The notes beneath the pieces are model-generated. The model did no database searches and was not told the origin of the DNA. It was given only the letters and a program-made list of their open reading frames with translations. 64,000 nt of DNA from Candidatus Colwellbacteria bacterium (GTDB lineage Bacteria > Patescibacteriota > Minisyncoccia > UBA6257 > Colwellbacteraceae). The position numbers and the translations under genes were made by a program. The DNA lies in the NCBI GenBank assembly GCA_016176525.1, contig JACOWZ010000003.1, positions 537,925-601,924 of the forward strand, given 5' to 3'. This document shows positions 5,412 to 62,174 of the stretch, piece after piece. The number at the start of each line of letters is the position of its first letter. Positions within the stretch are counted from its first letter, which is position 1.

Positions 5412-5935
5412 TTGATTAATTTGTATTGATCAACAAGTTCAATCGGCTTATCTTCTGAAAACCTTTCTGCCTCTAGAGTGAATTTGTTAGTAGTAATAAA
5501 GTATCCTTTTCCGTTTGTAATCTTACCAGCAATCGCGCCATAAAAATCTCTCATGGCTCCAACCCCAACCTCTTGAATAATAAATTTCTTGCACTGTATA
5601 TAGTGCTTAATCCCGTCTTTTTCTGCTATAACATCTATTCCTCCATCATAAGGGCCTCCGACTGATTCGGTTCTAAATCCCATTTCTCTAAACATCCAAG
5701 CAATATAATCTTCAAATTCCTTAGGTGAGTATCTACGGATCTTATTGATATAGTCCTTACCTGAAAGCCATTTCTCGTTTTTCGCAAATCTTCCTTGCTT
5801 TAATAAATTAGGCAAAACACTGTATATAAAGATGCGGGAGGCAATTACAATTAATAAAATTATCCAAATCGGCCAAAGTTTCCATAATAACACTAATACA
5901 TCTTTCAATATCTGTAACCAAAAATTATCTAGCAT
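5378..5935 (-). CDS. Membrane-anchored Mrr-cat restriction endonuclease-like protein
   Basis: N-terminal TM segment. Then DGGIDVIAEK...IQCKKF, which matches the Mrr_cat (PD-(D/E)xK) catalytic signature D-x-D...QCK. Confidence 0.55.
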   Translation of the reverse strand: MLDNFWLQILKDVLVLLWKLWPIWIILLIVIASRIFIYSVLPNLLKQGRFAKNEKWLSGKDYINKIRRYSPKEFEDYIAWMFREMGFRTESVGGPYDGGIDVIAEKDGIKHYIQCKKFIIQEVGVGAMRDFYGAIAGKITNGKGYFITTNKFTLEAERFSEDKPIELVDQYKLIKWREEIAKKSA

Positions 5936-6038
5936 AAATTTATTATATCACCCTATACAAAAACGCGCTTTTTCAAGCGCGTTTCGAGACTGTTTAGTAG
6001 ATTTAAAAAATCTTCCTGGTTGCATATATGTAATGATA

Positions 6039-6755
6039 TTAAATGTTTTTAATATAATGAATGATTACTGATATAAACCTAGATAATTTTGATGCTGAAT
6101 CAAAGAATAATGTTATCAAAGAAATAAAAACAATAATGACAATGTTTAATAATTGACTTGGTTGTAGACCAAAAACAGCAGTCACCATAAAATAGGACGC
6201 TAAAACAAAAAGAAACAGTGAAATTTCTCCTGAATAATCCATAGCTTTCTTAAACCTTGATTTTCTTTCTTCGGATAATTTCTTGTTTTCTTCCCTCAAC
6301 TTATCAGTGCTAGCTAAGTTACTTAGTCGTTGGAAGTATTCTTTTGTAGCCTCATAAGAGTTATCAAATTTCTCTCCTCTTCCTATTCTTCCAAAATATT
6401 CGTCCAAAAGATTCAGTCTTTCTTCTAGGGCTAAATTGTATTCATCTTGCATTTTTTGTAGGTTGTTAGATTCGTTATCTAACTTCTCTCTTACAATTAG
6501 CAAATTAAAAATTATTACTATAATATTCAAAACTAACCCTATGAAAAAATAATTATTGTTTGGAATATCAATAATCGACGATAACCCCAGCACTGCTCCA
6601 GAAAGTATCGTTACATGCTTGAAAAATCCCCATTTTTGCTCAGCTATTTTAATCTGAGTATCCTTAAAATCTTTATTCAAATCATTACGTAACCGAATAG
6701 CATCTTTTCTTTCTTTCGCTATTAGATCTATAAAGCGTTGCTGTTCTAAATTCAT
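6039..6755 (-). CDS. Hypothetical protein with a coiled-coil N-terminal half and a C-terminal multi-TM region
   Basis: 238 aa. Residues 1-150 are K/E/L-rich. The C-terminal 80 aa are hydrophobic. I recognise no catalytic motif. Confidence 0.35.
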   Translation of the reverse strand: MNLEQQRFIDLIAKERKDAIRLRNDLNKDFKDTQIKIAEQKWGFFKHVTILSGAVLGLSSIIDIPNNNYFFIGLVLNIIVIIFNLLIVREKLDNESNNLQKMQDEYNLALEERLNLLDEYFGRIGRGEKFDNSYEATKEYFQRLSNLASTDKLREENKKLSEERKSRFKKAMDYSGEISLFLFVLASYFMVTAVFGLQPSQLLNIVIIVFISLITLFFDSASKLSRFISVIIHYIKNI

Positions 6756-6818
6756 AAATTTATTCTCCTAATTTTTTTTTATTGGGTAGTTATTTTATTT
6801 TCTGTTTGCCTTACTATG

Positions 6819-9512
6819 TTATTTTTTATCAAAAACCCTCACGATTTCGTCAAAGTTTCTCAGTTTATCCCTTTCCCATTCCTCTTGCTTTATATAAAGG
6901 GCTTTATAGACAACTCGACTTTGCCGATCGTTTACATCCTCACACCACTTTTGTAATCTTTCAAACTTTAATTTATCGTCATCTTCTTCTCGTCCTTTTG
7001 TTTCAATAATGTAAACGGTTTTCTCATTTTTCTTCACAAAGAAATCAGGGTAGTAGGTGGCTATAAATCCCTCTGAATTTTTATACTCAATTCTAAGCGC
7101 GTTTGCTTCTTTGTTTTGGAAATTCTTTGCAAAAGAAATAACATCATCACAATTTTCAAGAAAATCAGAAAATACCAGCTCAAAATCACTGTCGCCGACA
7201 ATCTTATTGAAGACTGATTTTTTCGGTATTAAGTATGATTTGTCATTCACGACAAAGGGACGCGCCTCGCTGATTTTTATATAATTCTTTATCTCCGTAT
7301 CTCCCTTGTCTTCAACTGTAAGCTCGTTAATAGCTTTCTTGAAAGAATCTTTTATGAGCCTAATATACTCAACCTCTGACAAGTTTCTTAAAACATTGAG
7401 GTCTGACAAATTCACAGGGCTGTCAAACATATTATTCTGCACAAACTCTCTTACCTTGCCGAACAAAATGTCGTAGCAACCGAACAGACGCAGCTCCCGC
7501 ATTATTGCTTGCGCAAAAAATCCGACAACGCTTTGATAATCTGGCTCAATCTCACCGGAAAGTATTGTCGTGTGATGCGTTTTCTCATCCACCACATCTT
7601 TAAAAACAATTTCTCTCTTTTCTTCTTCAGAGAAAGTCTTTACTTTGACTTTTTTATTTCCAAATTTTGAAACATCTAACTCGGCAAGGTTTTTATACTC
7701 TCTCTGAATCCTCGGAGACATCACCGGAATCTCAATATCAAGTTTCTCAATATCTTTTTTCGGATTATCTTTATCAACCTCAATAACCATCGGGGCTATT
7801 GGCTTCGCACCTGTCCCCATCGCTTTCTTCTCAAGAATAACGCCCTCGCCTTTGATTGACTCAACAAAGTCCATAAAAGCGGGTGTTCCCACAACACTTA
7901 CATACTCCTCAACATCATCTCTGCCGAAAAACATTCTGCGTAGTCCTCGCCCAAGGGTTTGTTCTGGGAGAATTTTTGAATCGGCGGCATAAGGTCGTAA
8001 GCCAACGATAGTCGTTACATTTTTTACATCCCAACCCTCTTTCAACATCATCACGGAAATGATCACCTTGAACGGACTTTCCCAACTATCAATTTCATTT
8101 GCTTGCTTTCTAAGTAAATCTAATTCTTCTTTGCTTTTTCCAGAAACGCTTTCAGAAATTTCACCACTCTTATTTGTGTGAATGGTCAAAACCGCGCCTT
8201 TCAAACTTTTAAAACTCGTCTCAATGTATTCCGCCACTTCATCGCAGTTTTTTGTATCATCCGTCATTATGAAAAGAATGGACTTTTTACCCATCGGCTT
8301 TAATACATCGTATGTTTTCTGCCATTCCTCAATACCAAGATTTATATAATCTCTGTATTTTTCGCTGAATAGCGTACTCTGATTTTCTTTCAATTTTCCT
8401 CGGCTCGCCGCGTCCGGCGCAACAGGATTTTTTACAACTCTTTGATGTATCGCTTCAACAAGCGGATAATCAGAAATCGTCTGCACAAAAATAGAACCGT
8501 CATTCTTTTTTGGGGTAGCAGTAAGGTCAATCTGCAAAGATAATCCAGTCCCTTTCTGTTTCAGTCGATTGTCTATGTCGGTAATTGATTTAACCCAAGC
8601 AGACTTATCATCGTGCAAGTGATGGGCTTCGTCATTGAGCACGATAAGCTCGTCTATGTCTCTTACAATCACTCCGAGATCAACCTTAGAATCGCTCGTT
8701 TTAGTAACCGGCTTATCGCCTAAGAAATAGCGGGAAGTATCCTCATCATCCGCGCTTGCGTCTCTTATATCACTTTCAAAAACTCTATGGATATTGGTCA
8801 AAAATATATTTCCTGTGTCGGAAACATTGCGTAAATCATCCTGCAAATGCAAAGTCATTTGAAAATCGTCCTGCCAGTTTTGCCCATGATATCCGTTGTC
8901 AGGCAAAACAGGATCGCTAAAGAAGATTTTTAACCCCTCAAAATCATTCTTGATTCTTTCAAAAACAATGACATTCGGAGTTATCAAAAGAAAGTTCTTT
9001 GCCAAACTTGAATCTTCTTCATATTTTTTATGAAAATATGCCCATGCGATTACCAAACTCATCACTTTAGTCTTGCCCGCGCCTGTCGCCATCTTAATAA
9101 CAAAGCGAAGCCATTCCTCGGTAAACATCTGCGGACTTAACACGCCAGTCGTGTTGTAACGAATAAGATCGTATTTATCTTTTACTTTTGCCACCTCGTA
9201 AAGCCACACGACTGTTTCTAGCGCCTCCCTCTGTGCGAAATAGTATTTGAATTGAGTTGATGCTCCATGCTGGTCATATAAAATATGTTTTTCCCTAAAC
9301 CACCAATTCAAAAGCGACTTAGAAGTATCACTTGCTCCCTCATAATTTTTATCTCGCCATTCTTTTACTTTTTCACGGAGTCCTGCAACAAGAGGCGGTA
9401 GGAGTTTTTGAATAGCTCCTTTTTCCCGCAAATCCTCGTCAGCAGGAAACCATCTGATTTGAGGGTCAAGTATCGCATATGGGTCTTTGGGAAAATCCTT
9501 GTGTAGGGCCAT
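6819..9512 (-). CDS. res: Type III restriction enzyme, Res subunit (SF2 helicase plus C-terminal PD-(D/E)xK nuclease)
   Basis: Walker A MATGAGKTKVMSLVIAWAY. DEAH box LVLNDEAHHL. Helicase motif VI-like QTLGRGLRR. C-terminal nuclease motif YYPDFFV...VYIIETKG. 897 aa. Confidence 0.8.
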   Translation of the reverse strand: MALHKDFPKDPYAILDPQIRWFPADEDLREKGAIQKLLPPLVAGLREKVKEWRDKNYEGASDTSKSLLNWWFREKHILYDQHGASTQFKYYFAQREALETVVWLYEVAKVKDKYDLIRYNTTGVLSPQMFTEEWLRFVIKMATGAGKTKVMSLVIAWAYFHKKYEEDSSLAKNFLLITPNVIVFERIKNDFEGLKIFFSDPVLPDNGYHGQNWQDDFQMTLHLQDDLRNVSDTGNIFLTNIHRVFESDIRDASADDEDTSRYFLGDKPVTKTSDSKVDLGVIVRDIDELIVLNDEAHHLHDDKSAWVKSITDIDNRLKQKGTGLSLQIDLTATPKKNDGSIFVQTISDYPLVEAIHQRVVKNPVAPDAASRGKLKENQSTLFSEKYRDYINLGIEEWQKTYDVLKPMGKKSILFIMTDDTKNCDEVAEYIETSFKSLKGAVLTIHTNKSGEISESVSGKSKEELDLLRKQANEIDSWESPFKVIISVMMLKEGWDVKNVTTIVGLRPYAADSKILPEQTLGRGLRRMFFGRDDVEEYVSVVGTPAFMDFVESIKGEGVILEKKAMGTGAKPIAPMVIEVDKDNPKKDIEKLDIEIPVMSPRIQREYKNLAELDVSKFGNKKVKVKTFSEEEKREIVFKDVVDEKTHHTTILSGEIEPDYQSVVGFFAQAIMRELRLFGCYDILFGKVREFVQNNMFDSPVNLSDLNVLRNLSEVEYIRLIKDSFKKAINELTVEDKGDTEIKNYIKISEARPFVVNDKSYLIPKKSVFNKIVGDSDFELVFSDFLENCDDVISFAKNFQNKEANALRIEYKNSEGFIATYYPDFFVKKNEKTVYIIETKGREEDDDKLKFERLQKWCEDVNDRQSRVVYKALYIKQEEWERDKLRNFDEIVRVFDKK

Positions 9513-9517
9513 AAAAT

Positions 9518-10138
9518 TTATATTTCAGAACTCTTTTGCGGTTGAGAATTTGGTTGTTGCAATTTTGACTGCACTGGATTATTTATTAATAAAATATCTA
9601 AATCTTTTGTATCTTTTAAATAAGCTCCATCAATAATATCTGTGACCAATCCGAATTTCTCAGCTTCCTCAGAAGATAGTACAGCTCCACCATGCACTTC
9701 TTTATTTACGATACTTTTCTTCTTTCCCGTTACTTTTGAAATTACCTCGGAATAATCATCAGTAATCCTTTGAATCAATTTTGCCATTTCGCTTAGTTTA
9801 GTCGGGTTAAATTGTCCATTAAGTGTTGCAATTGCTTCATGAAGTACAAAACGACAACTTGGTGCCGCAATTCTTCTTTGACCGGCGCAGAACATCATTA
9901 CAGCGGCGCTATCAACGTTCCCCATTCCAATTGTCGTTTTTGAGATATTGATTTGCCTAAGAAAATTGTATGCTAAAAGACCGTGATCAGATGATCCACC
10001 CGAACTTGATATCTGGAGAATTATCTCATTTATAGGTTTTTCTGGATTTTGTTGAGCAAGCTTAATAGTAATAAATTTTATTAGATCATTTACTGAACCC
10101 TCGGAAACATTTGCATAAAAATTAATTAATAATTTCAT
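9518..10138 (-). CDS. ClpP-like (S14/S49 clan SK) serine protease family protein
   Basis: ISSSGGSSDHGLLAYNFL resembles the ClpP NSPGG region. NVDSAAVMMFCAG resembles the ClpP active-site Ser context AASMGAFLL. RFVLHEA resembles the ClpP His region. A C-terminal Asp region SSEEAEKFGLVTDII is present. 206 aa, with no TM helix. Confidence 0.55.
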   Translation of the reverse strand: MKLLINFYANVSEGSVNDLIKFITIKLAQQNPEKPINEIILQISSSGGSSDHGLLAYNFLRQINISKTTIGMGNVDSAAVMMFCAGQRRIAAPSCRFVLHEAIATLNGQFNPTKLSEMAKLIQRITDDYSEVISKVTGKKKSIVNKEVHGGAVLSSEEAEKFGLVTDIIDGAYLKDTKDLDILLINNPVQSKLQQPNSQPQKSSEI

Positions 10139-10487
10139 AATTTTCTTCTAAAAGTTTTTTTATTATTTCTAATTGTTCCTTGTTTTGTTCTGATAACTCT
10201 TGAACTTGCCTAAGAAATTCCTCATTTATTTTTTGTGTTGTTTCAACAGATTCTATTTTCCCAGAATATTCGCTGTATGCGGCATTGTTATATCTCATTT
10301 GATCAAGGAACAAGCCAATCACCGAAATAATAACTGCAACCAGAGAAACAAGAACCGATGCCACCACCGCAATAAGAATGTTGTCAATTTTATCAAATCG
10401 ACTCTTTACTTCCGGAGGCATCCCAGTTACAGGAGCATCTCTTTCTGGAATTGTAATTAAGGGTTTTTCCATATCAATATATTCCAA
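10122..10487 (-). CDS. Small single-pass membrane protein with a C-terminal coiled coil
   Basis: The central hydrophobic helix is ILIAVVASVLVSLVAVIISVIGLFL. The C-terminus is Q/E/L-rich. It overlaps the next gene by 17 bp and the previous gene by 14 bp, so it is tightly coupled to both. Confidence 0.35.
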   Translation of the reverse strand: MEYIDMEKPLITIPERDAPVTGMPPEVKSRFDKIDNILIAVVASVLVSLVAVIISVIGLFLDQMRYNNAAYSEYSGKIESVETTQKINEEFLRQVQELSEQNKEQLEIIKKLLEENYEIIN

Positions 10488-10686
10488 TTATTACGTGGAC
10501 ATTATTTTCCTCTCGTATCTCTAAATCTCTACCAATATATTTGGATAAATCTATACCGCCGAAAGAAACATTTTTGAATCTAGCTCCAGGTCCGAACTGA
10601 ACACCACCGATTCTTATAATCTTTTCCTTCGATTCGATACTACCATCAGCATTTACATTGAAAACCTCGTGAAAATTGATGCGCAT
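10474..10686 (-). CDS. Small hypothetical protein of 70 aa
   Basis: ORF packed with a 4-bp gap after the mod stop and a 14-bp overlap with the next gene. I recognise no motif. Confidence 0.3.
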   Translation of the reverse strand: MRINFHEVFNVNADGSIESKEKIIRIGGVQFGPGARFKNVSFGGIDLSKYIGRDLEIREENNVHVIIGIY

Positions 10687-10690
10687 ATTT

Positions 10691-12853
10691 TTATATTTTG
10701 ACCTCTATCACCCTAGTGGTGTCATTCCCGAAAATATCGACGACTTTTACGGCAATTTTGTGTTTGCCTTTTGTAGCAACTTTTGGAGAAGTAACGAGGT
10801 CAAGATTTCTGTTCTTTTTGGTACGGAAACTCTGCCACTCGTTGTCAAAAATATAATCGCCCGTCCATACTTCTTTTTCCTCGCCACCTTCCACAACCTT
10901 GATGATTTCTTTTCTGCTTGCAAAATCAAAATCAACTGCCCAATAGTCAATCCAGTCGCTCCATTTTTTAGTCAAAATTTCTTTTGAAATTTCTTCAGTT
11001 TTCTTATCTTTTGAGATTTTTACCACCTGACCATCTTCTACCACAACTTTAGATCTACCGGGGCGCAATGCCTCGGCAATTTCGCCTGAATTGTCCTGAT
11101 TGTAGAAAACAGAAAAATTTATCAGTTCAATAGAAATTTCTTTGTCATTCCCTCGTCCTTTCACAATCGGTTTCACTTCAATAAACGCGACATCATAGAA
11201 CTTCACTTGACCCTTTTCTACCACCTTTCTGTCAAAAACTTCTCGCGGAATTATCCTAAAGGCGATATCAATGCCTTGATCTTTGTACTCTGTAAAATCA
11301 AGTCCCATTTCATAATCAAACCCAAGAACATCAACTTTAGTGATTCCTTTTTCTTTACACTCTTTTACGATGTCCTGCACGAATTTAGAAGAAACGGGAG
11401 TATTGATGGGTCCCACCGCCACAAGGCGATCTCTTTTCTTGCCGATAACATTCACGAAAGACTCTACTGGCTCGGCTTTGTATGCAGAGAGAATAAGTTT
11501 TACAAATTCCTTTTCTTTCCTTTCGGCTTGTCTGGCTTTTTCTTCCGCTCGCAAATCATCATTTGTCGCGAGGAAATTTTCTCTTTCATATCTTCCAACA
11601 TTCAAAATCTCAAAAGCTCTAAAGTCCCCCCCCTCTTTTTTTAGTTCTCTTTGCACGTCAATCATTCTTTTTCGTGAAGTATGTATGCCGAATTTACCCA
11701 AATCTGACCCAATCCATCTTCTCTGTAGTTTCTCTGCTACCTCTAATGTAGTCCCGGAGCCACAGAAAAAATCTGCTACTAAGTCATTTGGTTCGGTTGA
11801 AGTCTCAATTATTCTCCTTAACAATCCGAATGGTTTTTGTGTTGGGTAACCAAGATACTCGGATGAACCACTAATGAGCGGTTTCGTATCGTCTGCGTCC
11901 CATACATCTCTTACATAGACTTCGGCGTAGTGCTGATTAAATAGTTTATCTTTCAATCTATCCGGAAGTGCTTTTCTACTTGCAATACACTCTTCTATTA
12001 TTTTAATGTCTTTTTCTGTAAGATCGTTAATTTTTGCTTCATTTAATTTTGTGTCAATGAATGGTTTCTCGTATTTAATTTTTTCTTTCGTAGCTTTGAA
12101 AATATAGCCGTCTTTATTTTTTGCATAGTAGAAGATCGTATCGTGTTTTCGTGCATAGAATTTTTTACCAACTCCTTGAATACGATAACCCCACGTGATT
12201 TCATTTAATAGATTATCTTTACCAAAAATTTCATCTAGTACCAATCTCATATACGCATTAACTCTATAATCACAATGCACATAGATACTTCCATTGTCAG
12301 CAAGGAGTCCGTGCATTAGTCTTAGTCGTTCATAAATCATCGTGACAAAACTATCAGCACCCTTACCCCAAGTGTCGCGGTAGGCGATTTCTTCTATAAC
12401 TGACGGCTTTTTTGTAAAACTTTCTTCGTCCTCGCCATCTCCGATTTTAATGTCCATTGAAAAATCCGCGCCGACATCGAAGGGCGGGTCAATATAAATC
12501 AATTTCAAACCGCCCTGCGCCTCTATTTCTTTGCGAAGCGGACCGTTCTTAAGAGAGGAAAGAATCAGCTTATTGTCTCCCCAAATCAATTTATTCGTCC
12601 AGCCGGTAATTTGCCTTCCCGTTGTATCCCAAAGAGTGCCGGAATCTCCAAATTCTCCTTGTCGTGGTTCATCTATTTGTTCAATAACTTGAAAAGGCAA
12701 GACAACATTCGTTACCTCATTTGTCTTTCCGTTCCAAAGAAGCTCAACCTCTCTGTCATCGTCAAACAACAAAAACCGATATTTCTCCGGAAGCGGTTTA
12801 CCCACTTCCAAGTATTTCACAATATCTCGTTTTTCGTTATCTGTTAATTTCAT
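10691..12853 (-). CDS. mod: Beta-class N6-adenine/N4-cytosine DNA methyltransferase (Type III Mod-like) with a roughly 300-aa C-terminal extension
   Basis: Motif IV DPPF (LIYIDPPFDVG) precedes motif I FFCGSGTT, which is the beta-class order. The N-terminal LIWGDNKLILSSLKNG is typical of Type III Mod. The ORF track extends to a GTG at 13045 inside a perfect palindrome. The ATG at 12851-12853 (MKLTDNEKRDI...) is the more plausible start. Confidence 0.75.
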   Translation of the reverse strand: MKLTDNEKRDIVKYLEVGKPLPEKYRFLLFDDDREVELLWNGKTNEVTNVVLPFQVIEQIDEPRQGEFGDSGTLWDTTGRQITGWTNKLIWGDNKLILSSLKNGPLRKEIEAQGGLKLIYIDPPFDVGADFSMDIKIGDGEDEESFTKKPSVIEEIAYRDTWGKGADSFVTMIYERLRLMHGLLADNGSIYVHCDYRVNAYMRLVLDEIFGKDNLLNEITWGYRIQGVGKKFYARKHDTIFYYAKNKDGYIFKATKEKIKYEKPFIDTKLNEAKINDLTEKDIKIIEECIASRKALPDRLKDKLFNQHYAEVYVRDVWDADDTKPLISGSSEYLGYPTQKPFGLLRRIIETSTEPNDLVADFFCGSGTTLEVAEKLQRRWIGSDLGKFGIHTSRKRMIDVQRELKKEGGDFRAFEILNVGRYERENFLATNDDLRAEEKARQAERKEKEFVKLILSAYKAEPVESFVNVIGKKRDRLVAVGPINTPVSSKFVQDIVKECKEKGITKVDVLGFDYEMGLDFTEYKDQGIDIAFRIIPREVFDRKVVEKGQVKFYDVAFIEVKPIVKGRGNDKEISIELINFSVFYNQDNSGEIAEALRPGRSKVVVEDGQVVKISKDKKTEEISKEILTKKWSDWIDYWAVDFDFASRKEIIKVVEGGEEKEVWTGDYIFDNEWQSFRTKKNRNLDLVTSPKVATKGKHKIAVKVVDIFGNDTTRVIEVKI

Positions 12854-13010
12854 CTGTTTTTTATAAGAATCAGACTTATTATACACTCTTTTCTGTGATA
12901 AAATATACTTAAGAAGTATGCGAATATTCCCTAATAAATCATTTATACTAATACTCTCTGTTGCGATATTACTTGTGCAAATTTCGATTCTGGGGTTGAC
13001 AATGAAAGAT

Positions 13011-13048
13011 GGAGTGGCTAAAATCTCTGTAGAGATTTTAGCCACTCC
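13011..13048. promoter_or_regulatory. Perfect 38-bp palindrome GGAGTGGCTAAAATCTCTGTAGAGATTTTAGCCACTCC upstream of mod
   Basis: 18-bp arms around a 2-bp centre, seen directly in the sequence. It lies about 160 bp upstream of the preferred mod ATG. No T-run follows on either strand, so it is more operator-like than terminator-like. Confidence 0.4.
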
Positions 13049-13257
13049 ATCTAACTAACGCGTATCTTATTTCTCCCAATCTTTGATTATTAGCGATTTG
13101 CCGCGTTTGGTGACCACCACTTTCTGCCGCTCTTGCCATTTTAGATTCTTAACATGCTCAATTGGGAGGGTAACGTAATATGTGTGCTGGTTTTTCTGGA
13201 TATTTCGCACATTTTTATTTTTTAGTTGCCTTCTTACCATATGCAAATTCTAACACA

Positions 13258-13297
13258 AGAAAACACGTTTTAAAACTAGTTTTAAAACGTGTTTTCT
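13258..13297 (-). terminator. 40-bp perfect palindrome (20-bp arms) immediately downstream of the trhO stop
   Basis: AGAAAACACGTTTTAAAACT/AGTTTTAAAACGTGTTTTCT. It sits 3 bp after the trhO stop on the transcribed strand. It is U-rich, so a terminator is likely, though it is unusually long. Confidence 0.4.
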
Positions 13298-13299
13298 GC

Positions 13300-14184
13300 T
13301 TAACTCGCCAATCTACTTACAAATCTGCATTTGAGATTGCAAAAACCGCCGGATTTTTTATAACACTCCTCGCATATAATATAGTGTCTGTGGCACACGT
13401 CATATGCACAATTTACATAATTTTCTGACTTTACTCCGCATCTCTCACAACTTGAAACAACCTCGTGTCTAGAATCTTCTGTGTTAAAACCTATTAAAAT
13501 CCTCTTATCAAAAACATACAGCTTGCCCTTAAAGTCTTCGTTTGGATATTTCTCCATATATGAGTGTATTCCGCCTTCAAGCTGATAAACATTTTCAAAT
13601 CCGTTTTGCATTAAATACCCCGAGGCCTTTTCGCACCTAACTCCACCCGTGCAAACTGTTAAAATCTCTTTGTCTTTTAGGTGTTTTATTTTGGGCAGAA
13701 ATTTTGGAATATCTCTAAAATTCGGTACATTGGACAAGATTGATCCTTCAAAATATCCACTTTTTTGTTCGTAGTCGTTCCGCATATCAACAATATAAAA
13801 TTCTTTTCCGCTCTCTATCCATTTTTTCAATTCTTCGGGCTTTAGATACTTTCCTGTTATGCGGTTTTCTGCATTTTCTTCGGTTCCCAGTCCGCTTGTT
13901 ACAATCTCTTCTCTTGCTTTGATGCTCAACTTAAGGAAAGAAGCGCCAGTTCCATCGCTATATTTAAAGTGAATTCCAGAAAACAACTCGTCGGAATTCA
14001 TTGCTTCAACATATTTTGCGATATTGTCTTTAGTGCCTTCAAGCGTGCCATTAATCCCCTCTTTGGAAATCAAAATTCTGCCCTTTAAGCCGAGACGCAG
14101 GCAAAGTTCGCGCTGATCTTGAACCGCTTTTATTGGATCAGCAACAAGCACATATTTATAATAGAGTATTACCTTAAAACTCAT
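13300..14184 (-). CDS. trhO: Rhodanese-domain tRNA uridine(34) hydroxylase TrhO (YceA/UPF0176 family)
   Basis: ILYYKYV...ADP...GRILISKEGINGTLEG matches the YceA N-terminus (ISFYKYF..ADP...GRVYLAHEGINAQI). A rhodanese Cys loop and a C-terminal CxxC...C cluster are present. The start was chosen at MSFKVILYYKYV. Confidence 0.7.
   Translation of the reverse strand: MSFKVILYYKYVLVADPIKAVQDQRELCLRLGLKGRILISKEGINGTLEGTKDNIAKYVEAMNSDELFSGIHFKYSDGTGASFLKLSIKAREEIVTSGLGTEENAENRITGKYLKPEELKKWIESGKEFYIVDMRNDYEQKSGYFEGSILSNVPNFRDIPKFLPKIKHLKDKEILTVCTGGVRCEKASGYLMQNGFENVYQLEGGIHSYMEKYPNEDFKGKLYVFDKRILIGFNTEDSRHEVVSSCERCGVKSENYVNCAYDVCHRHYIICEECYKKSGGFCNLKCRFVSRLAS
14045..14113. repeat. 69-bp direct repeat, copy A. 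It lies inside trhO, where it codes for ...GRILISKEGINGTLE...
   Basis: It matches 16342-16410 with 4 mismatches in 69 bp. Confidence 0.7.
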
Positions 14185-14223
14185 TACACGAATTCTAACA
14201 ATTATTGACACCTAGGTCTAGGT

Positions 14224-14637
14224 ATGTTACCTTGCATTAACCCAGTAAGAACTGGGATGTACCCTAAAAACAAGGAGTGGAAACAAATGCAAGTGAGTAT
14301 TTTGGTAGAAAAGGCTCTAGCCTACGAGAACCAAAACATGGTTAGCCGCTATACCGAACGGTATGGCGTAAGTATGGAAACTGCTAAGGTTCTCTTTGAG
14401 GAATGCAAGAAATTCCTCGTGGCATGCGCAAAGACGAAGGATCCCATCTCGCCACCCAACAAGGATGTTGACGAGATGTGGCACTTCTTCATACTACACA
14501 CGAAGGACTACGCAGCCTTTTGCGAGACCTACTTCGGCAAGTTCATCCACCACGTCCCGACGGACAAGGTGGAGGGCGTAAACTGCAACGACTGCTCGCA
14601 GAGCCCGCCGGATTGCACCTCGCCGGCACAGCCCTAG
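14224..14637 (+). CDS. Hypothetical protein in a GC-rich patch. The likely start is the internal Met at 14287, MQVSILVEK...
   Basis: ORF with a higher GC content than its neighbours. Overlapping alternate-frame ORFs at 14396-14581 and 14478-14672 are typical of a GC-rich insert. I recognise no motif. Confidence 0.35.
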   Translation: MLPCINPVRTGMYPKNKEWKQMQVSILVEKALAYENQNMVSRYTERYGVSMETAKVLFEECKKFLVACAKTKDPISPPNKDVDEMWHFFILHTKDYAAFCETYFGKFIHHVPTDKVEGVNCNDCSQSPPDCTSPAQP

Positions 14638-14658
14638 ATCAACTCCAAGACAACAACC

Positions 14659-14691
14659 GAGTCCAGTTATAAAAACTGGACTCTTTTATTT
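14659..14691 (+). terminator. Rho-independent terminator. Hairpin GAGTCCAGTT/AACTGGACTC followed by a TTTTATTTT run.
   Basis: 10-bp stem and a T-run 20 bp after the stop of the 14224-14637 ORF. Confidence 0.5.
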
Positions 14692-14713
14692 TCGTATTTT
14701 TCTCCTATTCTCT

Positions 14714-14741
14714 CCGGCTTATCACAACTGTGATAAGCCGG
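14714..14741. repeat. Palindrome CCGGCTTATCACAACTGTGATAAGCCGG. It is copy 1 of a pair flanking the HNH-like gene.
   Basis: Seen directly in the sequence. Arms of 13 bp. Confidence 0.6.
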
Positions 14742-14795
14742 ACAGGTTGTAAACCGGGAGTGGTATAATGTTTTGAGAATAACCGTAAGAAAACC

Positions 14796-15134
14796 GTGAT
14801 TAATCTTTGTAAACGGCATGGCCGAACCAAACACTATAAGCGCGCCGACGGTCCCCCTCGTTGCGGCAAATGCGCATATGCATATGTAGCGACAAATAGA
14901 GTCAGAAAAATAGATCGCCTCGCAGAGAAATTTAATACATGCAAAAGGTGCGGATACAAAGGGAGTATTGGAACCCTTAATTTTTATTATCCAAAAAGAC
15001 CCTACAAAAAGGCAAATTTGTTAGACCCAAGAAATTTGAGCCGTGCTTGGAACAAGATAGAGAATGAAGCCAAGAATTGTATTTTGTTATGCAGAAACTG
15101 TTATATAAAGTCTAGTGGCAAAGCCATCTATTAA
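14796..15134 (+). CDS. HNH-like zinc-finger nuclease-family small protein. The active-site His may be degenerate.
   Basis: CxxC pairs are present (CGKCAYAYV, CKRCGYKG, LLCRNCY). The C-terminal NLSRAWNKIENEAKNCILLCRNCY resembles the HNH xxLxxLCxxCN tail. It is flanked on both sides by related palindromes. Confidence 0.4.
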   Translation: MINLCKRHGRTKHYKRADGPPRCGKCAYAYVATNRVRKIDRLAEKFNTCKRCGYKGSIGTLNFYYPKRPYKKANLLDPRNLSRAWNKIENEAKNCILLCRNCYIKSSGKAIY

Positions 15135-15155
15135 CTTCGACTTATCACAGCTGTG
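15130..15155. repeat. Palindrome CGACTTATCACAGCTGTGATAAGCCG. It is copy 2 and starts right after the HNH-like stop.
   Basis: Seen directly in the sequence. It shares the core CTTATCACA(A/G)CTGTGATAAG with the copy at 14714. Confidence 0.6.
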
Positions 15156-15194
15156 ATAAGCCGAGGTTGGGTCGGAGTTAAGTTTTGTAGATTT

Positions 15195-15233
15195 GAAAAA
15201 TAAAAAAGCCGACGAGCAGAATGCTTCGTCGGC
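15195..15233 (-). terminator. Rho-independent terminator for the SPFH gene. Hairpin GCCGACGA(loop)TCGTCGGC with a U-run on the minus strand.
   Basis: 8-bp GC-rich stem followed, in minus-strand sense, by a T-run (A-run 15195-15207 on plus). It lies about 20 bp after the SPFH stop. Confidence 0.5.
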
Positions 15234-15252
15234 TAGAGGTGCCCTAGATCTA

Positions 15253-16176
15253 CTAGGTTGTGTTCCCCGAGTTTGACCACGGCACCGGAATGGCGAAGGG
15301 GGTCTCGTCTCCCACAAGGGTTGTGGGGACTTGGGATCCGCCAGCGATCCATGCCTCCAGCCACTTCAAGAAGAGATAGGCTTGTCCTTTCTCTCCGCTA
15401 GTAGCGGCAGCAAGCCTCTCGATGGCATAGCCTTGACCGTCGGCCTCAACCCTGGTTTGGTTCGCGATAATCTCCTTCTGCTTTAAGACAGCCAGCTCCT
15501 TCTGAACATCTCGTTCAGCGATAGCCGCCTTTTCAACAGCAAGATTGTATTCGCCTGTGAAGTCAAAATCCGTGAGACTTACCTTGTCCACCACGAGATT
15601 TTGCCTTTCCACATCCGCCGTAATACGCCTGATGATATCTTGCTTCACCAGCTCGCGGTTTTCGCCGCGCAGATCTTCAACTGCGAAGAAGTTCACTGCG
15701 CTTTTCACGCTGTCTTGTACCGCCGGAACCACCACCTTTCCCTCGTAGTTTATCCCGAGGGTTTGGTGGATAGTTTGGATCTTGGTCTCGTTCGGATGGT
15801 AGAGAACTGTTACCTCCGTGAAGACAGCTTGTTGGTCTAGCGCGATGCCTTCAGCCGTTACGGTGTAGGCTACCGAGCGAACGTCGTATTTTGTCACCGT
15901 ATTGAAGATGGGGGTGACCCACTGGAACCGGCCAGGTTCCTTAATCTCTAGATCGCCGTTGGCGTGGAAGACCACTGCTCGTTCTGTAGCATCCACGTGA
16001 AGTAGGCCAGAGGTGACGAAAATGAGGACGAAGAGCCCCACTAGCGCCATTCCGCCCCAGAGTAAGATCCCGGGCAAGTTGGGTACTCGTCCGTAACTTC
16101 CCGGCTTCGTCAGCGCGAAACGGCTAGGTCGTGGTTCATGCTCATCGTTTTCGTTTTCACGCGTGTTGCGTTGCAT
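15253..16176 (-). CDS. SPFH/band-7 (stomatin/prohibitin/HflC-like) membrane protein
   Basis: N-terminal TM helix, then an SPFH-like core (VVFHANGDLEIKEPGRFQWVTPIFNTVTKYDVRS...) and a C-terminal coiled-coil-like region. GC-rich. Confidence 0.65.
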   Translation of the reverse strand: MQRNTRENENDEHEPRPSRFALTKPGSYGRVPNLPGILLWGGMALVGLFVLIFVTSGLLHVDATERAVVFHANGDLEIKEPGRFQWVTPIFNTVTKYDVRSVAYTVTAEGIALDQQAVFTEVTVLYHPNETKIQTIHQTLGINYEGKVVVPAVQDSVKSAVNFFAVEDLRGENRELVKQDIIRRITADVERQNLVVDKVSLTDFDFTGEYNLAVEKAAIAERDVQKELAVLKQKEIIANQTRVEADGQGYAIERLAAATSGEKGQAYLFLKWLEAWIAGGSQVPTTLVGDETPFAIPVPWSNSGNTT

Positions 16177-16210
16177 TCTTGGTTTCTCCTTCTGTGTTCT
16201 TCGCCTATAT

Positions 16211-16258
16211 AAGGCGAGTATTCAAGAGATTTATAATAATCTCCTCAATACTCGCCTT
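16211..16258 (-). promoter_or_regulatory. Hairpin in the 5' leader of the SPFH gene (AAGGCGAGTATT ... AATACTCGCCTT)
   Basis: 12-bp inverted repeat located 25-75 bp upstream of the SPFH start codon on the minus strand. A Shine-Dalgarno-like aaggagaaacc follows it. Confidence 0.3.
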
Positions 16259-16341
16259 ATTATTTTTTATACTAAAAATAATTGTTAATGAACGAAGCTC
16301 AATATAAACTATATTGACTCAAATGTCAATAGAATGTTATT

Positions 16342-16410
16342 GTGCCATTAATCTCCTCTTTGGAAATCAAAATTCTGCCCTTTAAGCCGAGGGGCAGGCA
16401 AAGCTCGCGC
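16342..16410. repeat. 69-bp direct repeat, copy B. It lies in the intergenic region upstream of the response regulator gene.
   Basis: It matches 14045-14113. The ORF-track start at 16342 (MPLISSLEIKILPFKPRG...) is an artefact of reading through this duplicated fragment. Confidence 0.7.
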
Positions 16411-16430
16411 GGGTTTGATATAATTTATCT

Positions 16431-17103
16431 AATGCGGCTTCTTGTTATTGAAGATGAGGAAGAGACTAGAGAGTTTCTTAAAGTTGCCTTAGAAGAGCAA
16501 TCTTTCGCGGTAGACACCGCATGTGACGGCGACAAAGGCGCTTATTTAGCGCGCTTAAACGACTACGATTTAATTATTCTTGACCACATTCTGCCCCTAA
16601 AAGACGGATTTGAAGTTTGCAACGATATAAGAAGCAGCGGGAAACACACGCCGATACTAATGCTTTCTGTAAAATCAGAGATAGACCACAAAATTAATCT
16701 TTTTGAACAGGGAATTGACGATTATGTAACAAAGCCGTTTTCTATGAGCGAGCTTCTTGCAAGGGTTAGAGCAATTTTAAGAAGGCCGAAAATTCTTCAA
16801 GAAGATGAAATAACAATTGACGACCTTGTGTTGAACGTTCAAAAACAATCCGTATCTCGCGGAGACAAGAAAATATATTTAACCAGAAAGGAATTCAGCT
16901 TGCTGGAGTATCTTATGCGCAATGCCGGGACCGTTGTTTCAAGGGGTATGATAATGGAACACGTGTGGGATTCAGAAAGCGATCCGTTTTCAAACACTAT
17001 AGAAACACATATTTTAAACTTAAGAAAGAAAATAGAGCTCCCTAAAAAGAGAAAGATAATCCACTCCGTACCGGGTAGGGGTTATAAAATAGACTTGTTA
17101 TAA
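16431..17103 (+). CDS. OmpR-family two-component response regulator (receiver plus winged-helix)
   Basis: MRLLVIEDEEETREFL...DLIILDHILP (receiver Asp). C-terminal winged-helix motifs YLTRKEFSLLEYLMRN and GYKIDL. The start was moved to MRLLVIED. Confidence 0.8.
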
Positions 17104-18998
17104 ACACTCATAAACTTAATAGTCTCTTTTCGCTCTTTAAGGGCTTTGTCTGCAGAGGCCTCTATCGCGCGCAAAAGTTTTTCGAATATTGCCGGATACT
17201 TAAGGATTTTATTTTTTTTAAGATTGTATCTCGCGGCATAGGTGTGCCTTTTTATTTCTTCGCACACCCCCGGCACTGTCTTTTCCCAGAATAACTTTCG
17301 CAAGTTTTTAGGCTCCGTGGATTTACTTAACCTAAGCAGTCTTGCGCCAACGGCATTTATATATCCCCTCTTTAAATCATCTTCCCAATCATGGGCATCG
17401 TCATTTAACTGGCGGGCAATTATATAGTTTTTAAAAAATCTTATTGTGTTTTGGACCTCGGGCGACTTTTCGCGGTAACCCAAGGCAAATAAAATGCCTA
17501 TCGGCCCCAATGCATGCCCAAACGATTTTTCTGCAAGCTGTAGATAATTGCCGAATTTCGGCAAAGTTATCCGGCTTCTGCAGTTTTTAACCTCCCAGGT
17601 ATTGGCGCTATCTATTGCATCAAATGTAGCGCGAGAAAACTCCATAAACCCGCTCGCTTCCGGCAAGATTGAGTCCAATATTGAAGAAGATTCCCGCAAA
17701 GAAATATTTGCGACACTTAGCGTCTCGGGGTCGCCTTCGCCGTCTAAAAAGTCGTCGTAAATTGTGTAAGCTATCCACCCAAACAGATTGGCCGCGCCGA
17801 ACCGAACTAACATATCGTCTGAAATGCCTTCGGCTGTTTTTCCCAGCGCTACCTTAAATAAATATGGCAAGAGTACGATTTGCCTGTCTTTATCGTTTTT
17901 CAGGGTTTTACGTATAATTTTTTCTGCCTGATTTTGCAAATCCGGGCCAGAGAACGCAAACCTGCGCCTTACTCTACGCACAATTTTGGCATATATTTTA
18001 CTTTCGTTCATTCTACTATTTATCACTGCGCTCTTAACTTTGGTTTCTTTTGGCTCGTTTAAAAATTTATTTATTGCCTCCAAACACAAAGCAGTTGTTG
18101 TAGAAGCCGAGCCTGCATAAAGCGTTTTCTTTTTTGTCTTCATCTGAAAATAAAAAGAAAATGGCCTCCAACCGCCGTTTTTACCCTGGGTTTTAAGAAG
18201 ATAACCAATGCCTTTGGTAAGATTTTCTCTATGTTTAAGCCCCGTTAGATTTATTAACGTTGAGATTGCAAGCGCAGTGCGCAGCGGGTTTTCCCAACCG
18301 CCGCTTGGCTCTTGTTTAGACAAAATAAGCTTTACAATTTGATCGGTCTTTTCCCCTTTATAGAACCTAGAAATAAAATATGCAGCTGGGTAAATTTTGT
18401 TATATGGAAATTCGTAATCCTCTTCGTCAATAGATTTTTTAATAAAAGCGATGACCTTGGGCAAAAATATATCTTGAAGGGAAAGAAAATAGGCAATATT
18501 CGCGTTTACAACCAAATCTGTGTCATTCCAAACGTTTCTTCCCTCTTCGGGGACAAGCCACATATCGTACGGGCCGCCCTCGCTTTTTTCGGCCGAGGTG
18601 AGCATTGTTACAATTTTTGCCATAACATCGCCGCTGAACAAACGCGGGTGATATTCATAAAGCGCGGCAAGCGCGCAAAACGTGTCGTCTAGGTCGTCTG
18701 GATACGGCTCTTTTTTGTACCAATGTGACTTTCTAAACCAATAATTAAATGACCAATATTCACTCTTTTCTTTCAACAGAAAATCAGCAGACTTCTTTTT
18801 AATTTTTTTTGATCTATCTCCACCGATATTGATAAGTGAAGAAAGTACTATGTTTGTCGGCACTATTGCCGGAACAGTTTTAGCGCGCGAATAGTCGTCT
18901 AATTTCTTGGATACCAAACACAAAAAACTGCCGTTCTTTTCTTGGTCTTTGGCTAAAAAGCCTAACCCTTTGCCAATTGCTGATTGAAGATTATTCAT
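17082..18998 (-). CDS. Two-domain isoprenoid-synthase-like protein. The N-terminal domain is an alpha/alpha-toroid (squalene-hopene cyclase or prenyltransferase type) with a DxDDT motif. The C-terminal domain carries two DDxxD motifs.
   Basis: N-domain: QW-type repeats KGLGFLAKDQEKNGSF, LILSKQEPSGGW and KGIGYLLKTQGKNGGW, plus PDDLDDTFCALAAL (compare the class II DxDDTA motif). C-domain: IYDDFLDGEGD, and about 118 aa further on, QLNDDAHDWEDD. This spacing resembles FARM/SARM or DDxxD/NSE spacing. 638 aa. Confidence 0.45.
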   Translation of the reverse strand: MNNLQSAIGKGLGFLAKDQEKNGSFLCLVSKKLDDYSRAKTVPAIVPTNIVLSSLINIGGDRSKKIKKKSADFLLKEKSEYWSFNYWFRKSHWYKKEPYPDDLDDTFCALAALYEYHPRLFSGDVMAKIVTMLTSAEKSEGGPYDMWLVPEEGRNVWNDTDLVVNANIAYFLSLQDIFLPKVIAFIKKSIDEEDYEFPYNKIYPAAYFISRFYKGEKTDQIVKLILSKQEPSGGWENPLRTALAISTLINLTGLKHRENLTKGIGYLLKTQGKNGGWRPFSFYFQMKTKKKTLYAGSASTTTALCLEAINKFLNEPKETKVKSAVINSRMNESKIYAKIVRRVRRRFAFSGPDLQNQAEKIIRKTLKNDKDRQIVLLPYLFKVALGKTAEGISDDMLVRFGAANLFGWIAYTIYDDFLDGEGDPETLSVANISLRESSSILDSILPEASGFMEFSRATFDAIDSANTWEVKNCRSRITLPKFGNYLQLAEKSFGHALGPIGILFALGYREKSPEVQNTIRFFKNYIIARQLNDDAHDWEDDLKRGYINAVGARLLRLSKSTEPKNLRKLFWEKTVPGVCEEIKRHTYAARYNLKKNKILKYPAIFEKLLRAIEASADKALKERKETIKFMSVYNKSIL

Positions 18999-20361
18999 TT
19001 GAAACCGGGAATTCCACTATAAATGTTGCTCCAGCGTTAACTTTGCTAGAAACACTAATGCTGCCGCCGAAATCTTTCTCAATAATACTTTTAGTCATTG
19101 AAAGGCCTATGCCTATTCCCTCTTCATTTGTTTTGGTGGTAAAAAATGGCTCAAAAATCTTAGTTAAGTTCTCTGCGGGTATTCCCGCGCCATAATCTAC
19201 AACTTTAAGAACGAGTTTTCCGTCTTCTTTGTATAAATACACGGCGATTTCTCTTCTTGCATTACTACCGGAATGTGAATATGAATCAATGGCGTTGGCA
19301 ATTAAATTTAGAACAACTTGGTTTAACCGCACCGCATCCCCAAAAATACTAATTTCGTCTTGTGCCGAAAAATGCACCTTAATCTTTGCTTTTGACGCTT
19401 TATATGAAAGGATGCTGATAATATCTTTAATTTCTTTGTTTACAGAAAAGACTTTCTTATTTGCTTGCCTTGCCAGTTGTTTACGCACCGCAATCACCAA
19501 ATCCTGCAGTTTGCGAGCTGCTCCTGTTGCTCTCTCTACATATTTGTTGTTTGTCGTGTTTTTTAGTTTTTCGGTATTTAACGAAACAGAATTTAGGGGA
19601 TTCATAAGGTCGTGAAATATGCCTGCGCTTAGGCGGCCGAACTCTGCAAATCTGTAAAGTTGGCTTATCTTTTCCACTTGTGCTTCTTTTAACTCTTTGG
19701 TTCTTTCTTCCACCGTTATCTCCAGCGAATCGCGTTCTTGCTTAAGCTCCGCTTCGGATTTTCTTGCCCTTTTTAAAGATTTCTCTATCTCGCGGTTAGA
19801 GAGCCAAGAAACAACGGCGATAATTAATAAAACAACTGCTATAAAAATTGCATTTGCCATATTTAACAATTCCAATCTCCAGTAAGAGTCTGGTGGCAAA
19901 ATTGAGTTAATCTGTAAATAAGCAACAATTACTATAAAAAACGCAGTAAACCCAGCCGTAAAAAAAGCGAACCTAGTATTAACCAAAATTCCAGACATAA
20001 CTATTATTAGAGCGTACACGAGCAAGCCATCGGAAATGTCTACACCGTACTTAATAGCCGTATACGAATTTAAAAGAAAGAAAACTCCAAGGAAAACTGT
20101 AGATGTTAGCGTTGAAAACCCCTTTCGCGACAACGTATACAGGACAACAAAAAAAGAAAAGACAATAAAAACAACTCCGGCTGACATTGCGTTGTACAAA
20201 CCCATAATCCACTTAATCAGATTCATTAAAAAAGCGACAAGTGATAAGCTGATTATGGACAGCAATAAAACATTGAGTATAAACTCACGCCTAGCTTTAT
20301 CCTCGTTTTTTGAAACGGGCAAAACAAGTCTCCTAAAAAGAGTTATAAAACGTTTTACCAT
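18991..20361 (-). CDS. Sensor histidine kinase with a multi-TM N-terminus (about 6 TM helices), HisKA and HATPase_c domains
   Basis: H-box FHDLMNPLNS. HATPase motifs VLNLIANAIDS (N-box) and DYGAGIP / GIGIGLS (G-boxes). Its stop overlaps the start of the 17082-18998 gene by 8 bp. Confidence 0.75.
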   Translation of the reverse strand: MVKRFITLFRRLVLPVSKNEDKARREFILNVLLLSIISLSLVAFLMNLIKWIMGLYNAMSAGVVFIVFSFFVVLYTLSRKGFSTLTSTVFLGVFFLLNSYTAIKYGVDISDGLLVYALIIVMSGILVNTRFAFFTAGFTAFFIVIVAYLQINSILPPDSYWRLELLNMANAIFIAVVLLIIAVVSWLSNREIEKSLKRARKSEAELKQERDSLEITVEERTKELKEAQVEKISQLYRFAEFGRLSAGIFHDLMNPLNSVSLNTEKLKNTTNNKYVERATGAARKLQDLVIAVRKQLARQANKKVFSVNKEIKDIISILSYKASKAKIKVHFSAQDEISIFGDAVRLNQVVLNLIANAIDSYSHSGSNARREIAVYLYKEDGKLVLKVVDYGAGIPAENLTKIFEPFFTTKTNEEGIGIGLSMTKSIIEKDFGGSISVSSKVNAGATFIVEFPVSNE

Positions 20362-20582
20362 ACATAGACATTATACAATGTCCACAGTAACTGCTCTATT
20401 TTAAGACCAAGGAGATCCGACACTCACTGTTGTTAGGGCAAACGCGCTTAATGCTGCTGCGTTTCTAACTTTTTTGCTCTCAAGTATCTTCTTAATGAGT
20501 TTTTTCATTTGTTTATTTATATTTTTTTTCGACCTTTGTAAAAAGCATAATTCGGTTGAAATAAATATTATTTAAAGATTCT

Positions 20583-22604: not shown

Positions 22605-22658
22605 AGTATAGATTTATAAAAATCTATATAAAGTAATTATAAAGAAACTGGGGATAGG

Positions 22659-24506: not shown

Positions 24507-24507
24507 G

Positions 24508-25068: not shown

Positions 25069-25134
25069 ATATACTTAAAGCATATAGCACATATGCTATA
25101 TTGCAATATGTGGAAAAAGCCCACAATAAAGAAG

Positions 25135-25437: not shown

Positions 25438-25456
25438 AGTATATAATAAATTTGCT

Positions 25457-26977: not shown

Positions 26978-26978
26978 G

Positions 26979-28436: not shown

Positions 28437-28441
28437 ACCGT

Positions 28442-61539: not shown

Positions 61540-61550
61540 GGCTTATCCAC

Positions 61551-61574: not shown

Positions 61575-61581
61575 GCATTCT

Positions 61582-62169: not shown

Positions 62170-62174
62170 AGTAA

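Follow-up and report, generated by a model that had tools for sequence, protein, structure and literature searches.

A stretch of 64,000 nt from a genome of Candidatus Colwellbacteria (Patescibacteria), which was analysed as a whole and is called the window below, with all coordinates referring to it, contains a 69-nt segment of trhO, the gene for a tRNA uridine-34 hydroxylase, in two copies. One of these copies lies inside the gene and the other directly in front of a response-regulator gene, and the DNA enclosed by them carries three further genes, two of which are conspicuously GC-rich. The locus raises the question of how the enclosed genes arrived, and of whether the duplicated segment is the trace of their arrival. 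We read the region at about 14.23-16.41 kb as a 2.2-kb acquired islet between the divergent promoters of trhO and the response-regulator gene, representing an eroded and immobile recombination scar. This reading is tentative and may be given a probability of roughly 40%; it is ranked first because the repeat brackets the foreign DNA exactly, matches a conserved block of TrhO, and places the 5' end of trhO inside the bracket. The features needed for the argument are the following, in order of position.

13300-14184, minus strand: trhO (UPF0176/rhodanese), intact, 294 amino acids from the ATG at 14184
14045-14113, within trhO: repeat copy R1, coding for TrhO residues 24-46 (GRILISKEGINGT), the best-conserved N-terminal block
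14114-14184, minus strand: trhO codons 1-23, inside the repeat bracket, 31% GC
14192-14220, minus strand: promoter-like site of trhO, TAGACC-17-TAGAAT, which includes a TG motif and is separated from the start codon by 7 nt; a pattern match from a consensus scan only
14287-14637, plus strand: UCP032817-like gene (PF27765), GC content at third codon positions (GC3) 0.709; the longest open reading frame (ORF) starts at 14224
14659-14693, plus strand: intrinsic terminator of the UCP032817-like gene, a 10-bp stem followed by TTTTATTTTC
14705-14740: left 36-nt direct repeat of the HNH unit, with the palindrome CCGGCTTATCACAACTGTGATAAGCCGG; hairpin of -24.6 kcal/mol, z = -7.2
14761-14769, plus strand: extended -10 element of the HNH unit, TGGTATAAT, read from the sequence
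14796-15134, plus strand: HNH-like gene, 112 amino acids, host-like GC content, GC3 0.389
15128-15163: right 36-nt direct repeat of the HNH unit with its palindrome, overlapping the stop codon; hairpin of -19.7 kcal/mol
15196-15233, minus strand: intrinsic terminator of the SPFH gene, a hairpin followed by a U-run
15253-16176, minus strand: SPFH/Band 7 (prohibitin-family) gene, 307 amino acids, GC3 0.620
16209-16260: inverted repeat forming a hairpin with 23-bp arms in the 5' untranslated region of the SPFH gene; -28.2 kcal/mol, z = -8.7
16301-16329, minus strand: strong sigma-70-like promoter of the SPFH gene, TTGACA-17-TATATT, 11/12 matches
16342-16410, non-coding: repeat copy R2, in which the trhO segment is decaying; it directly precedes the response-regulator promoter
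16416-16424, plus strand: TGATATAAT, read from the sequence as the extended -10 element of the response-regulator gene; 5 nt separate it from R2 and 7 nt from the ATG
16432-17103, plus strand: gene for an OmpR-type response regulator (Pfam Response_reg and Trans_reg_C), the native right flank, GC3 0.402

The duplicated segment of trhO

A preliminary description of this DNA had reported a 69-bp repeat with four mismatches, and the repeat finder returned it at exactly the same positions, with 65 of 69 nucleotides (94%) identical between R1 and R2 and the two copies 2297 nt apart. The mismatches are found at 14057/16354 (C/T), 14095-14096/16392-16393 (AC/GG) and 14107/16404 (T/C), and the longest stretch that is identical in both copies is a core of 37 nt. 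In a pairwise alignment that included the flanks, the similarity ends abruptly on both sides. As to further copies, which had also been asked for, a 50-nt probe of the repeat with up to three mismatches hit only R1 and R2 in the window, no third copy being present, while none was expected from 100 shuffles. Leaving aside the repeats within the large genes for probable surface proteins and a small number of short families of palindromes, R1/R2 is the sole long dispersed repeat of high identity in the window.

The segment concerned is a well-defined part of the protein, since R36, E42, G43 and N45 of TrhO are invariant in an alignment of 160 homologues. If R2, which ends 21 nt before the ATG of the response-regulator gene, is read in the frame of trhO, three codons differ from R1: GAA is replaced by GAG, which is synonymous, CGT by CCC (Arg to Pro), and GGG by GAG (Gly43 to Glu). 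Gly43, a residue of the EGING motif, is invariant in the 160 TrhO sequences, and R1 retains the states of the family. Because of this radical change at an invariant glycine, R2 is to be regarded as a relic rather than a working part, and it is a non-functional, non-coding and decaying copy of this lineage's own trhO segment. The drift of about 6% that it has undergone since copying speaks against an exchange that is very recent or still continues. At alternative ends of the islet, neither a short target duplication nor microhomology was found, the promoter hexamers being the sole matches.

The identity of trhO itself is clear. With 240 bits, its product passes the cutoff of 170 for the NCBIfam TrhO equivalog; it contains UPF0176_N, Rhodanese and Rhodanese_C of Pfam, and aligns end to end with 159 homologues. 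Both the 5' end of the gene and its promoter-like site are situated inside the repeat bracket. Recombination between R1 and R2 would consequently delete the start and the promoter of trhO, and a simple loss of the islet would be selected against under any of the models considered here if trhO matters to the cell. As a side observation, trhO and the response-regulator gene resemble each other in that a -10-like element (TAGAAT and TGATATAAT, respectively) is placed only 7 nt before the start codon and no ribosome-binding site is visible, which suggests that both transcripts may be leaderless.

The genes enclosed by the repeat

The bracket contains the genes that had been described previously: a GC-rich ORF, an HNH-like gene with a palindrome on each side, and an SPFH gene. 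The raised GC content that had been attributed to the whole insert over a background of 38-40% applies to part of it only. Compared with the 49 other genes of the window (mean GC3 0.392, standard deviation 0.054), the UCP032817-like gene (0.709, z = 5.9) and the SPFH gene (0.620, z = 4.2) are clearly set apart; the HNH-like gene (0.389) has a z of about 0, codons 1-23 of trhO have a host-like GC content, and the 5' end of trhO as a whole, the non-coding spacers and the 165-nt promoter region of the SPFH gene are all host-like or AT-rich, the mean GC content of the window being 42%. The GC-rich insert thus consists of two GC-rich genes within low-GC connective DNA. The next-highest GC3 in the window (0.547, z = 2.9) belongs to a 476-codon ORF on the plus strand (46348-47778, GC 0.52), which is without a Pfam family and adjoins mraZ/mraW on the opposite strand.

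The UCP032817-like gene probably starts at the ATG at 14287, which is preceded by an AAGGAG ribosome-binding site and with which the N-termini of the homologues align. It had been listed as an orphan ORF, a label that has to be given up: the window protein and three homologues carry a precomputed match to PF27765 (local Pfam scans gave no match to this family), and the homologues, which are 57-60% identical, share the conserved motif DEMWHxFxLHTxDYxxFC...FGxFIHHxP with it. The family has few relatives, with distant copies in three phage records. One homologue of 57% identity (contig L168, 10001-10450) is a lone GC-rich gene (GC 0.51, GC3 0.60) set between rnhB and a methyltransferase gene in a low-GC chromosome (GC3 about 0.30), without flanking repeats, and this small family appears to have been inserted into low-GC genomes more than once, as a single gene each time. 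A sequence search against solved structures gave matches at chance level only, and the AlphaFold2 model, which is all-helical (predicted local distance difference test, pLDDT, of 75), had no Foldseek match in the PDB at E < 2.

The HNH-like protein matches five PHROG families of HNH endonucleases at E values between 2.7e-9 and 2e-3 (best, phrog_2255 at 2.7e-9), and its score against Pfam HNH is 8.5 bits, below the cutoff of 21.4. Its final CxxCH motif reads CRNCY, with the last conserved His replaced by Tyr, as opposed to CNNCH in its sole close homologue, which is 72% identical and is encoded in an unrelated context (contig L169, 183-579). A sequence search of the PDB yielded noise, and the AlphaFold2 model (pLDDT 54) was unusable. 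The two 36-nt repeats that flank the gene are identical at 31 of 36 positions and each contain a palindrome of 26-28 nt. Similarity between the window and L169 on the DNA level starts exactly at the upstream palindrome (CCGGCTTATCA-N6-TGATAAGCCGG) and stops at the stop codon, which indicates that palindrome, promoter and ORF behave as one unit; L169 also has an equivalent extended -10 element (TGATATAAT). The palindrome centres are CAACTG in the first copy of the window and TGGCCA in L169, the latter being perfectly palindromic, as is the centre of the second copy in the window (CAGCTG). The whole looks like a discrete mobile module that was inserted between two convergent terminators. A reading of the palindromes as integron attC sites was dropped, since they are too short, no integron integrase is present, and a GTTRRRY-like core occurs in one of the two only. 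With the free-standing HNH homing endonuclease genes of phages, the unit shares the PHROG HNH matches, the intergenic site, a promoter of its own and a homologue in an unrelated context; it differs from them in scoring below the Pfam HNH threshold and in carrying Tyr in place of the last conserved His. We know of no homing endonuclease gene for which flanking 36-nt direct repeats with a palindrome have been described.

The product of the SPFH gene is recognized by Pfam Band_7 (78.1 bits against a cutoff of 23.6, residues 61-233) and by phrog_200, an SPFH 'lipoprotein' family (E = 2e-25). Its nearest relatives are about 53% identical, and the three contexts retrieved for them (L083, L165 and L166) are high-GC contigs (54-67% GC) with genes of phage type. 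One of them, a contig of 272 kb, encodes a ribonucleotide reductase, a FEN-like nuclease, an ATP-dependent DNA ligase and a Cdc6-like ATPase; another QueC, GTP cyclohydrolase I (FolE) and a pyrimidine-dimer excision enzyme (Pyr_excise); and a further one Ead/Ea22, HNH_3-NUMOD4, LAGLIDADG, ThyX and DUF3310 proteins. Distant homologues of 24-27% identity are present in cultured Staphylococcus and Acinetobacter phages. The contexts of the nearest relatives point to a phage-borne clade of prohibitin-like proteins. The hairpin in the leader of the SPFH gene is followed by a U-run on the plus strand (region 16209-16275) and resembles a terminator directed towards the response-regulator gene.

Each of the cargo genes has a promoter or ribosome-binding site of its own and a terminator, and their families are also carried by phages. 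A horizontal acquisition of the two GC-rich genes from a foreign source is well supported by their composition and relatives. The three cargo genes were never found together in any other locus retrieved, and what appeared as one element is therefore to be regarded as a mosaic of seemingly independently mobile, self-contained genes. Accessory genes of phages (morons) and cryptic prophage remnants are known to remain in chromosomes after the structural genes are gone, and the islet resembles them in comprising lone accessory genes, each equipped with a promoter and a terminator, that have an atypical GC content and belong to families shared with phages. It differs from them in that no structural, replication or lysis gene and no integrase is retained, and the link to phages is drawn from the contexts of homologues of about 53% identity. 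PHROG matches were limited to the HNH endonuclease families and the SPFH 'lipoprotein' family, with no phage gene for structure, replication, lysis or integration, and scans of viral contigs gave nothing for the 37-nt core, the SPFH protein, a 16-sequence SPFH profile or the HNH protein. The defence-system models of PADLOC had no meaningful match among the three cargo proteins.

Routes by which the islet may have formed

According to the favoured reading, the foreign DNA would have entered by recombination through homology to trhO. This may have happened either by site-specific integration of the type known from dusA and prfC, the incoming DNA bringing a replacement 5' end of trhO, or by a RecA-dependent single crossover of a circle that carried a trhO fragment. 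Either route would leave the trhO segment duplicated on both sides of the new DNA, and later deletions would have removed the displaced 5' end beyond R2 together with any recombinase or backbone genes. The reading gains support from the fact that a conserved block of TrhO is duplicated, which is the type of site used by gene-targeting integrases (PMC4482086).

The closest parallel is provided by the dusA-specific islands, in which an element with an integrase is inserted into the 5' end of a tRNA-modification gene, to which it brings a new 5' end (PMC4482086). These islands have been recorded in more than 200 genomes, contain an adjacent tyrosine integrase and 21-bp semiconserved attachment (att) repeats, leave the original 5' end of the gene beyond the island, and show detectable excision (PMC4482086). 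The trhO islet is like them in that the conserved 5' segment of a tRNA-modification gene is hit, that imperfect direct repeats stand at both ends, and that the working 5' end and promoter are on the island side of the proximal repeat. It is unlike them in having neither an integrase nor a remnant 5' end, a repeat of 69 bp, no recurrence among 159 other loci, and a cargo of 2.3 kb only. Integrative conjugative elements of the SXT/R391 group, as Hochhut and Waldor reportedly found in 1999, likewise enter the 5' end of prfC and supply a new promoter and 5' coding sequence. SXT is an element of about 100 kb that encodes Int and Xis and recombines at a 17-bp core. The 5' end supplied by SXT keeps its target gene functional, as an incoming 5' end would have done for trhO, but the trhO islet offers no Int, no Xis and no comparable size.

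Several results weigh against such an origin. No recombinase, integrase or transposase family was recognized in the three ORFs of the bracket or in the approximately 58 ORFs scanned across the 64 kb, which bears out the earlier remark that an integrase is missing. No displaced 5' end of trhO is present beyond R2, where the 21 nt, including TGATATAAT, are without similarity to codons 1-23. Because of this, the scar model needs at least two further deletions: both the att and the crossover variants predict a second segment plus the rest of the 5' end, and hence require a deletion flush with the right end of R2 and a separate loss of any recombinase. A duplicated trhO fragment of at least 28 nt was found at none of 159 other Patescibacteria trhO loci (0/159), inspected for up to 10 kb on each side of the gene. 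Codons 1-23 of trhO are unusually divergent, ranking second lowest among the 160 sequences; only the nearest relative (L085) ranks lower, and upstream of trhO its contig lacks all of the islet genes. Since this relative shares the divergence, the 5' end of trhO gives no evidence of having come with an element, and its divergence appears typical of the lineage. The mosaic make-up of the cargo described above counts in the same direction, as does the lone, repeat-free UCP032817-like gene of L168, which indicates that genes of this type can arrive without an att site. To our knowledge, finally, there is no self-sufficient integrative element as small as 2.3 kb.

None of the islet cargo genes was found near trhO in the 159 other Patescibacteria loci. 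The closest TrhO proteins are 62% identical among 185,579 species genomes and 70% identical in JGI metagenomes, neither sharing any gene order with the window, and the metagenome contig with the latter has a different neighbour gene. Signs of an insertion sequence or transposon were likewise missing, as there is no transposase family and no terminal inverted repeat at the ends of the bracket, and the repeat is 69 nt long and includes coding sequence. A literature search on trhO as an integration site found nothing relevant. An element that integrated into trhO and restored the gene, as had originally been proposed, is thus no more than a possibility and fails two defining features. Direct repeats with one copy in trhO and a 5' end inside the bracket were indeed observed, whereas the displaced 5' end, the recombinase and any recurrence in 159 loci were not.

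Less likely than not, but a close rival of the scar model, is the explanation that the foreign genes were captured intergenically by illegitimate recombination, as might follow an uptake of DNA, and that R2 is an ectopic patch, copied locally from trhO some 150-250 bp away; the 5' end of trhO would then be native and an att site would never have existed. Such patches are known from short-patch double illegitimate recombination, abbreviated SPDIR, in which intragenomic single strands anneal at microhomologies and leave patches of 3 to about 100 bp (bioRxiv 10.1101/2023.11.22.568220). The 69 bp of R2 fall within this size range (bioRxiv 10.1101/2023.11.22.568220), the junctions on both sides of R2 are novel, with no trhO sequence beyond, so that one event would explain both ends without extra deletions, and the template lies very near the presumed insertion point. 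The missing recombinase, the patchwork of unrelated pieces in the islet, the lineage-typical look of the trhO 5' end and the neat, repeat-free insertion of the homologous GC-rich gene in L168 would all be accommodated as well. As in SPDIR, a short intragenomic copy has been placed ectopically with sharp ends. However, SPDIR has been studied experimentally in A. baylyi only, where it is extremely rare (below about 1e-12), and it normally produces small insertion-deletions and is not known to accompany gene capture on the kilobase scale. In addition, no supporting microhomology is visible at the junctions, the position flush with the islet boundary and the exact coverage of the conserved TrhO block would have to be coincidence, and the intact regulatory signals on each foreign gene are not expected from a random capture of fragments.

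That R2 is what remains of a second or older trhO, a full copy next to the response-regulator gene which was cut down to 69 bp by two deletions or insertions, appears improbable. Its orientation is that of trhO and its inactivating changes are those of a pseudogene, but two independent, sharp-ended deletions would be needed, and no graded similarity extends beyond the 69 bp. Moreover, an identity of 94% implies a recent duplicate rather than an old paralogue, and no second trhO fragment was seen within up to 10 kb on either side of trhO in the 159 Patescibacteria loci.

Still less can be said for an active mini-element, that is, a 2.3-kb unit that excises and integrates at the 69-bp sites with the help of a recombinase supplied by a phage or by another part of the 645-kb genome. 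The direct repeats with their identical 37-nt core would suit such a unit, and sequencing data bear on it in part. Two other sequencing runs yielded three Logan contigs that agree with the window: L001 corresponds to 13268-16251 without a mismatch and then folds back in the hairpin of the SPFH leader, L002 (run SRR12113430) corresponds exactly to 14065-16384, from one repeat core to the other, and L167 to 16362-28998. The core-to-core span of L002 has the graph shape that a circle plus an empty site would also give, and taken alone, the break of the graph in the 37-nt core would also be compatible with excised and circular forms side by side; any repeat exceeding the assembler's word size, however, gives the same shape, and L001 reads straight across the integrated left junction. 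Exact-protein look-ups retrieved contigs of the same strain only and no variant arrangement. Excision at the repeats would furthermore leave trhO without its start codon and promoter, the four substitutions in R2, one of them at an invariant residue, speak of age and decay, and no recombinase was found in the window. The islet is immobile now, with no sign of present mobility.

The same contigs bear on an artefact of assembly, a concern that had been raised with the repeat. Since L001 and L002 are both colinear to it, the window has its trhO-side junction and its internal joins reproduced independently, and these are not artefacts of a single assembly; the join between R2 and the response-regulator gene rests on copy-specific variants together with the window assembly. 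A chimera, in which GC-rich DNA of another organism was joined through a shared 37-mer, is accordingly very improbable. It could be argued for by the fact that the path from R2 to the response-regulator gene is found in the window assembly alone, two Logan contigs breaking inside the repeat core, but two Logan assemblies from different runs match without a mismatch (L001 from trhO to the SPFH gene, L002 to the spacer left of R2), copy-specific variants in L002 and L167 connect sequence of the R2 type with the SPFH-side spacer on the one hand and with the response-regulator gene on the other, and the composition of both the nested HNH unit and the AT-rich promoters is host-like. Scarcely credible, too, is a co-option of R2 for regulation, in which a plus-strand promoter-like site at 16314-16343 (TTGACT-18-TATTGT with a TG motif, just upstream of R2) would give the response-regulator transcript a leader antisense to trhO codons 24-46 and so couple both genes: the plus strand of R2 is 94% complementary to the trhO mRNA, but the promoter match is weak (9/12) and no better than chance would allow (14 matches, with 7.2 expected), a better extended -10 element stands downstream of R2, and R2 shows no sign of conservation and is accumulating substitutions.

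Other features of the window and the meaning of the islet

Directly downstream of trhO, at 5378-13246, an AT-rich cluster resembling a defence locus was noticed. It comprises genes for an Mrr-type nuclease (5378-5935), a type III restriction subunit (6819-9512), a ClpP-like protein (9518-10138, with a GC3 of only 0.232) and an N6/N4 DNA methylase (10691-13045), followed by a 59-codon ORF without a known family (13067-13246). A homologue of VirD4/TraG-type coupling proteins (25457-26977, plus strand; TrwB_AAD_bind and T4SS-DNA_transf) is encoded among housekeeping genes, and no other conjugation gene was seen among the ORFs scanned.

Two very large ORFs on the minus strand, 51207-54740 and 56260-60639, encode proteins of 1177 and 1459 amino acids with internal repeat families, including a tract with a 12-nt period (52123-52308) and nine copies of a 53-nt unit (56729-59904). 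One of them contains Laminin_G_3 and Big_13 domains, the other has no Pfam match, and both are probably surface proteins. A perfect 24-nt palindrome, GGTGTTATGATTAATCATAACACC, occurs three times within 44-nt repeats of 77-80% identity (61548-61591, 61699-61742 and 62449-62492), near the starts and ends of genes, and short runs with a 14-nt period (TAGTTTnTAGTT...) are found at four distant places (1665-1715, 45503-45553, 62162-62210 and 62390-62420).

The trhO islet, small and decayed, belongs to a familiar type, in a lineage that has been little studied; it does not depart from known genomic islets, and no active mechanism is shown by it. A more far-reaching interpretation, to which we attach little probability, is that it represents a minimal integrative unit specific to the Candidate Phyla Radiation (CPR), which would target the EGING block of trhO, bring its own 5' end and promoter, and be moved in trans by a recombinase encoded by the genome or by a phage. 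If this were true, the unit would be a miniature counterpart of the dusA and prfC islands in the ultra-small genome of an episymbiont, with the SPFH and UCP032817-like genes as selectable cargo. For reduced episymbionts, mobile DNA and the ways in which genes are gained are still poorly documented, and the locus provides a clean and small case of gene acquisition in Candidatus Colwellbacteria. Scars such as the trhO islet may be useful as markers of gene gain in Patescibacteria, and the 69-bp relic provides a handle for a test at the level of populations or reads.

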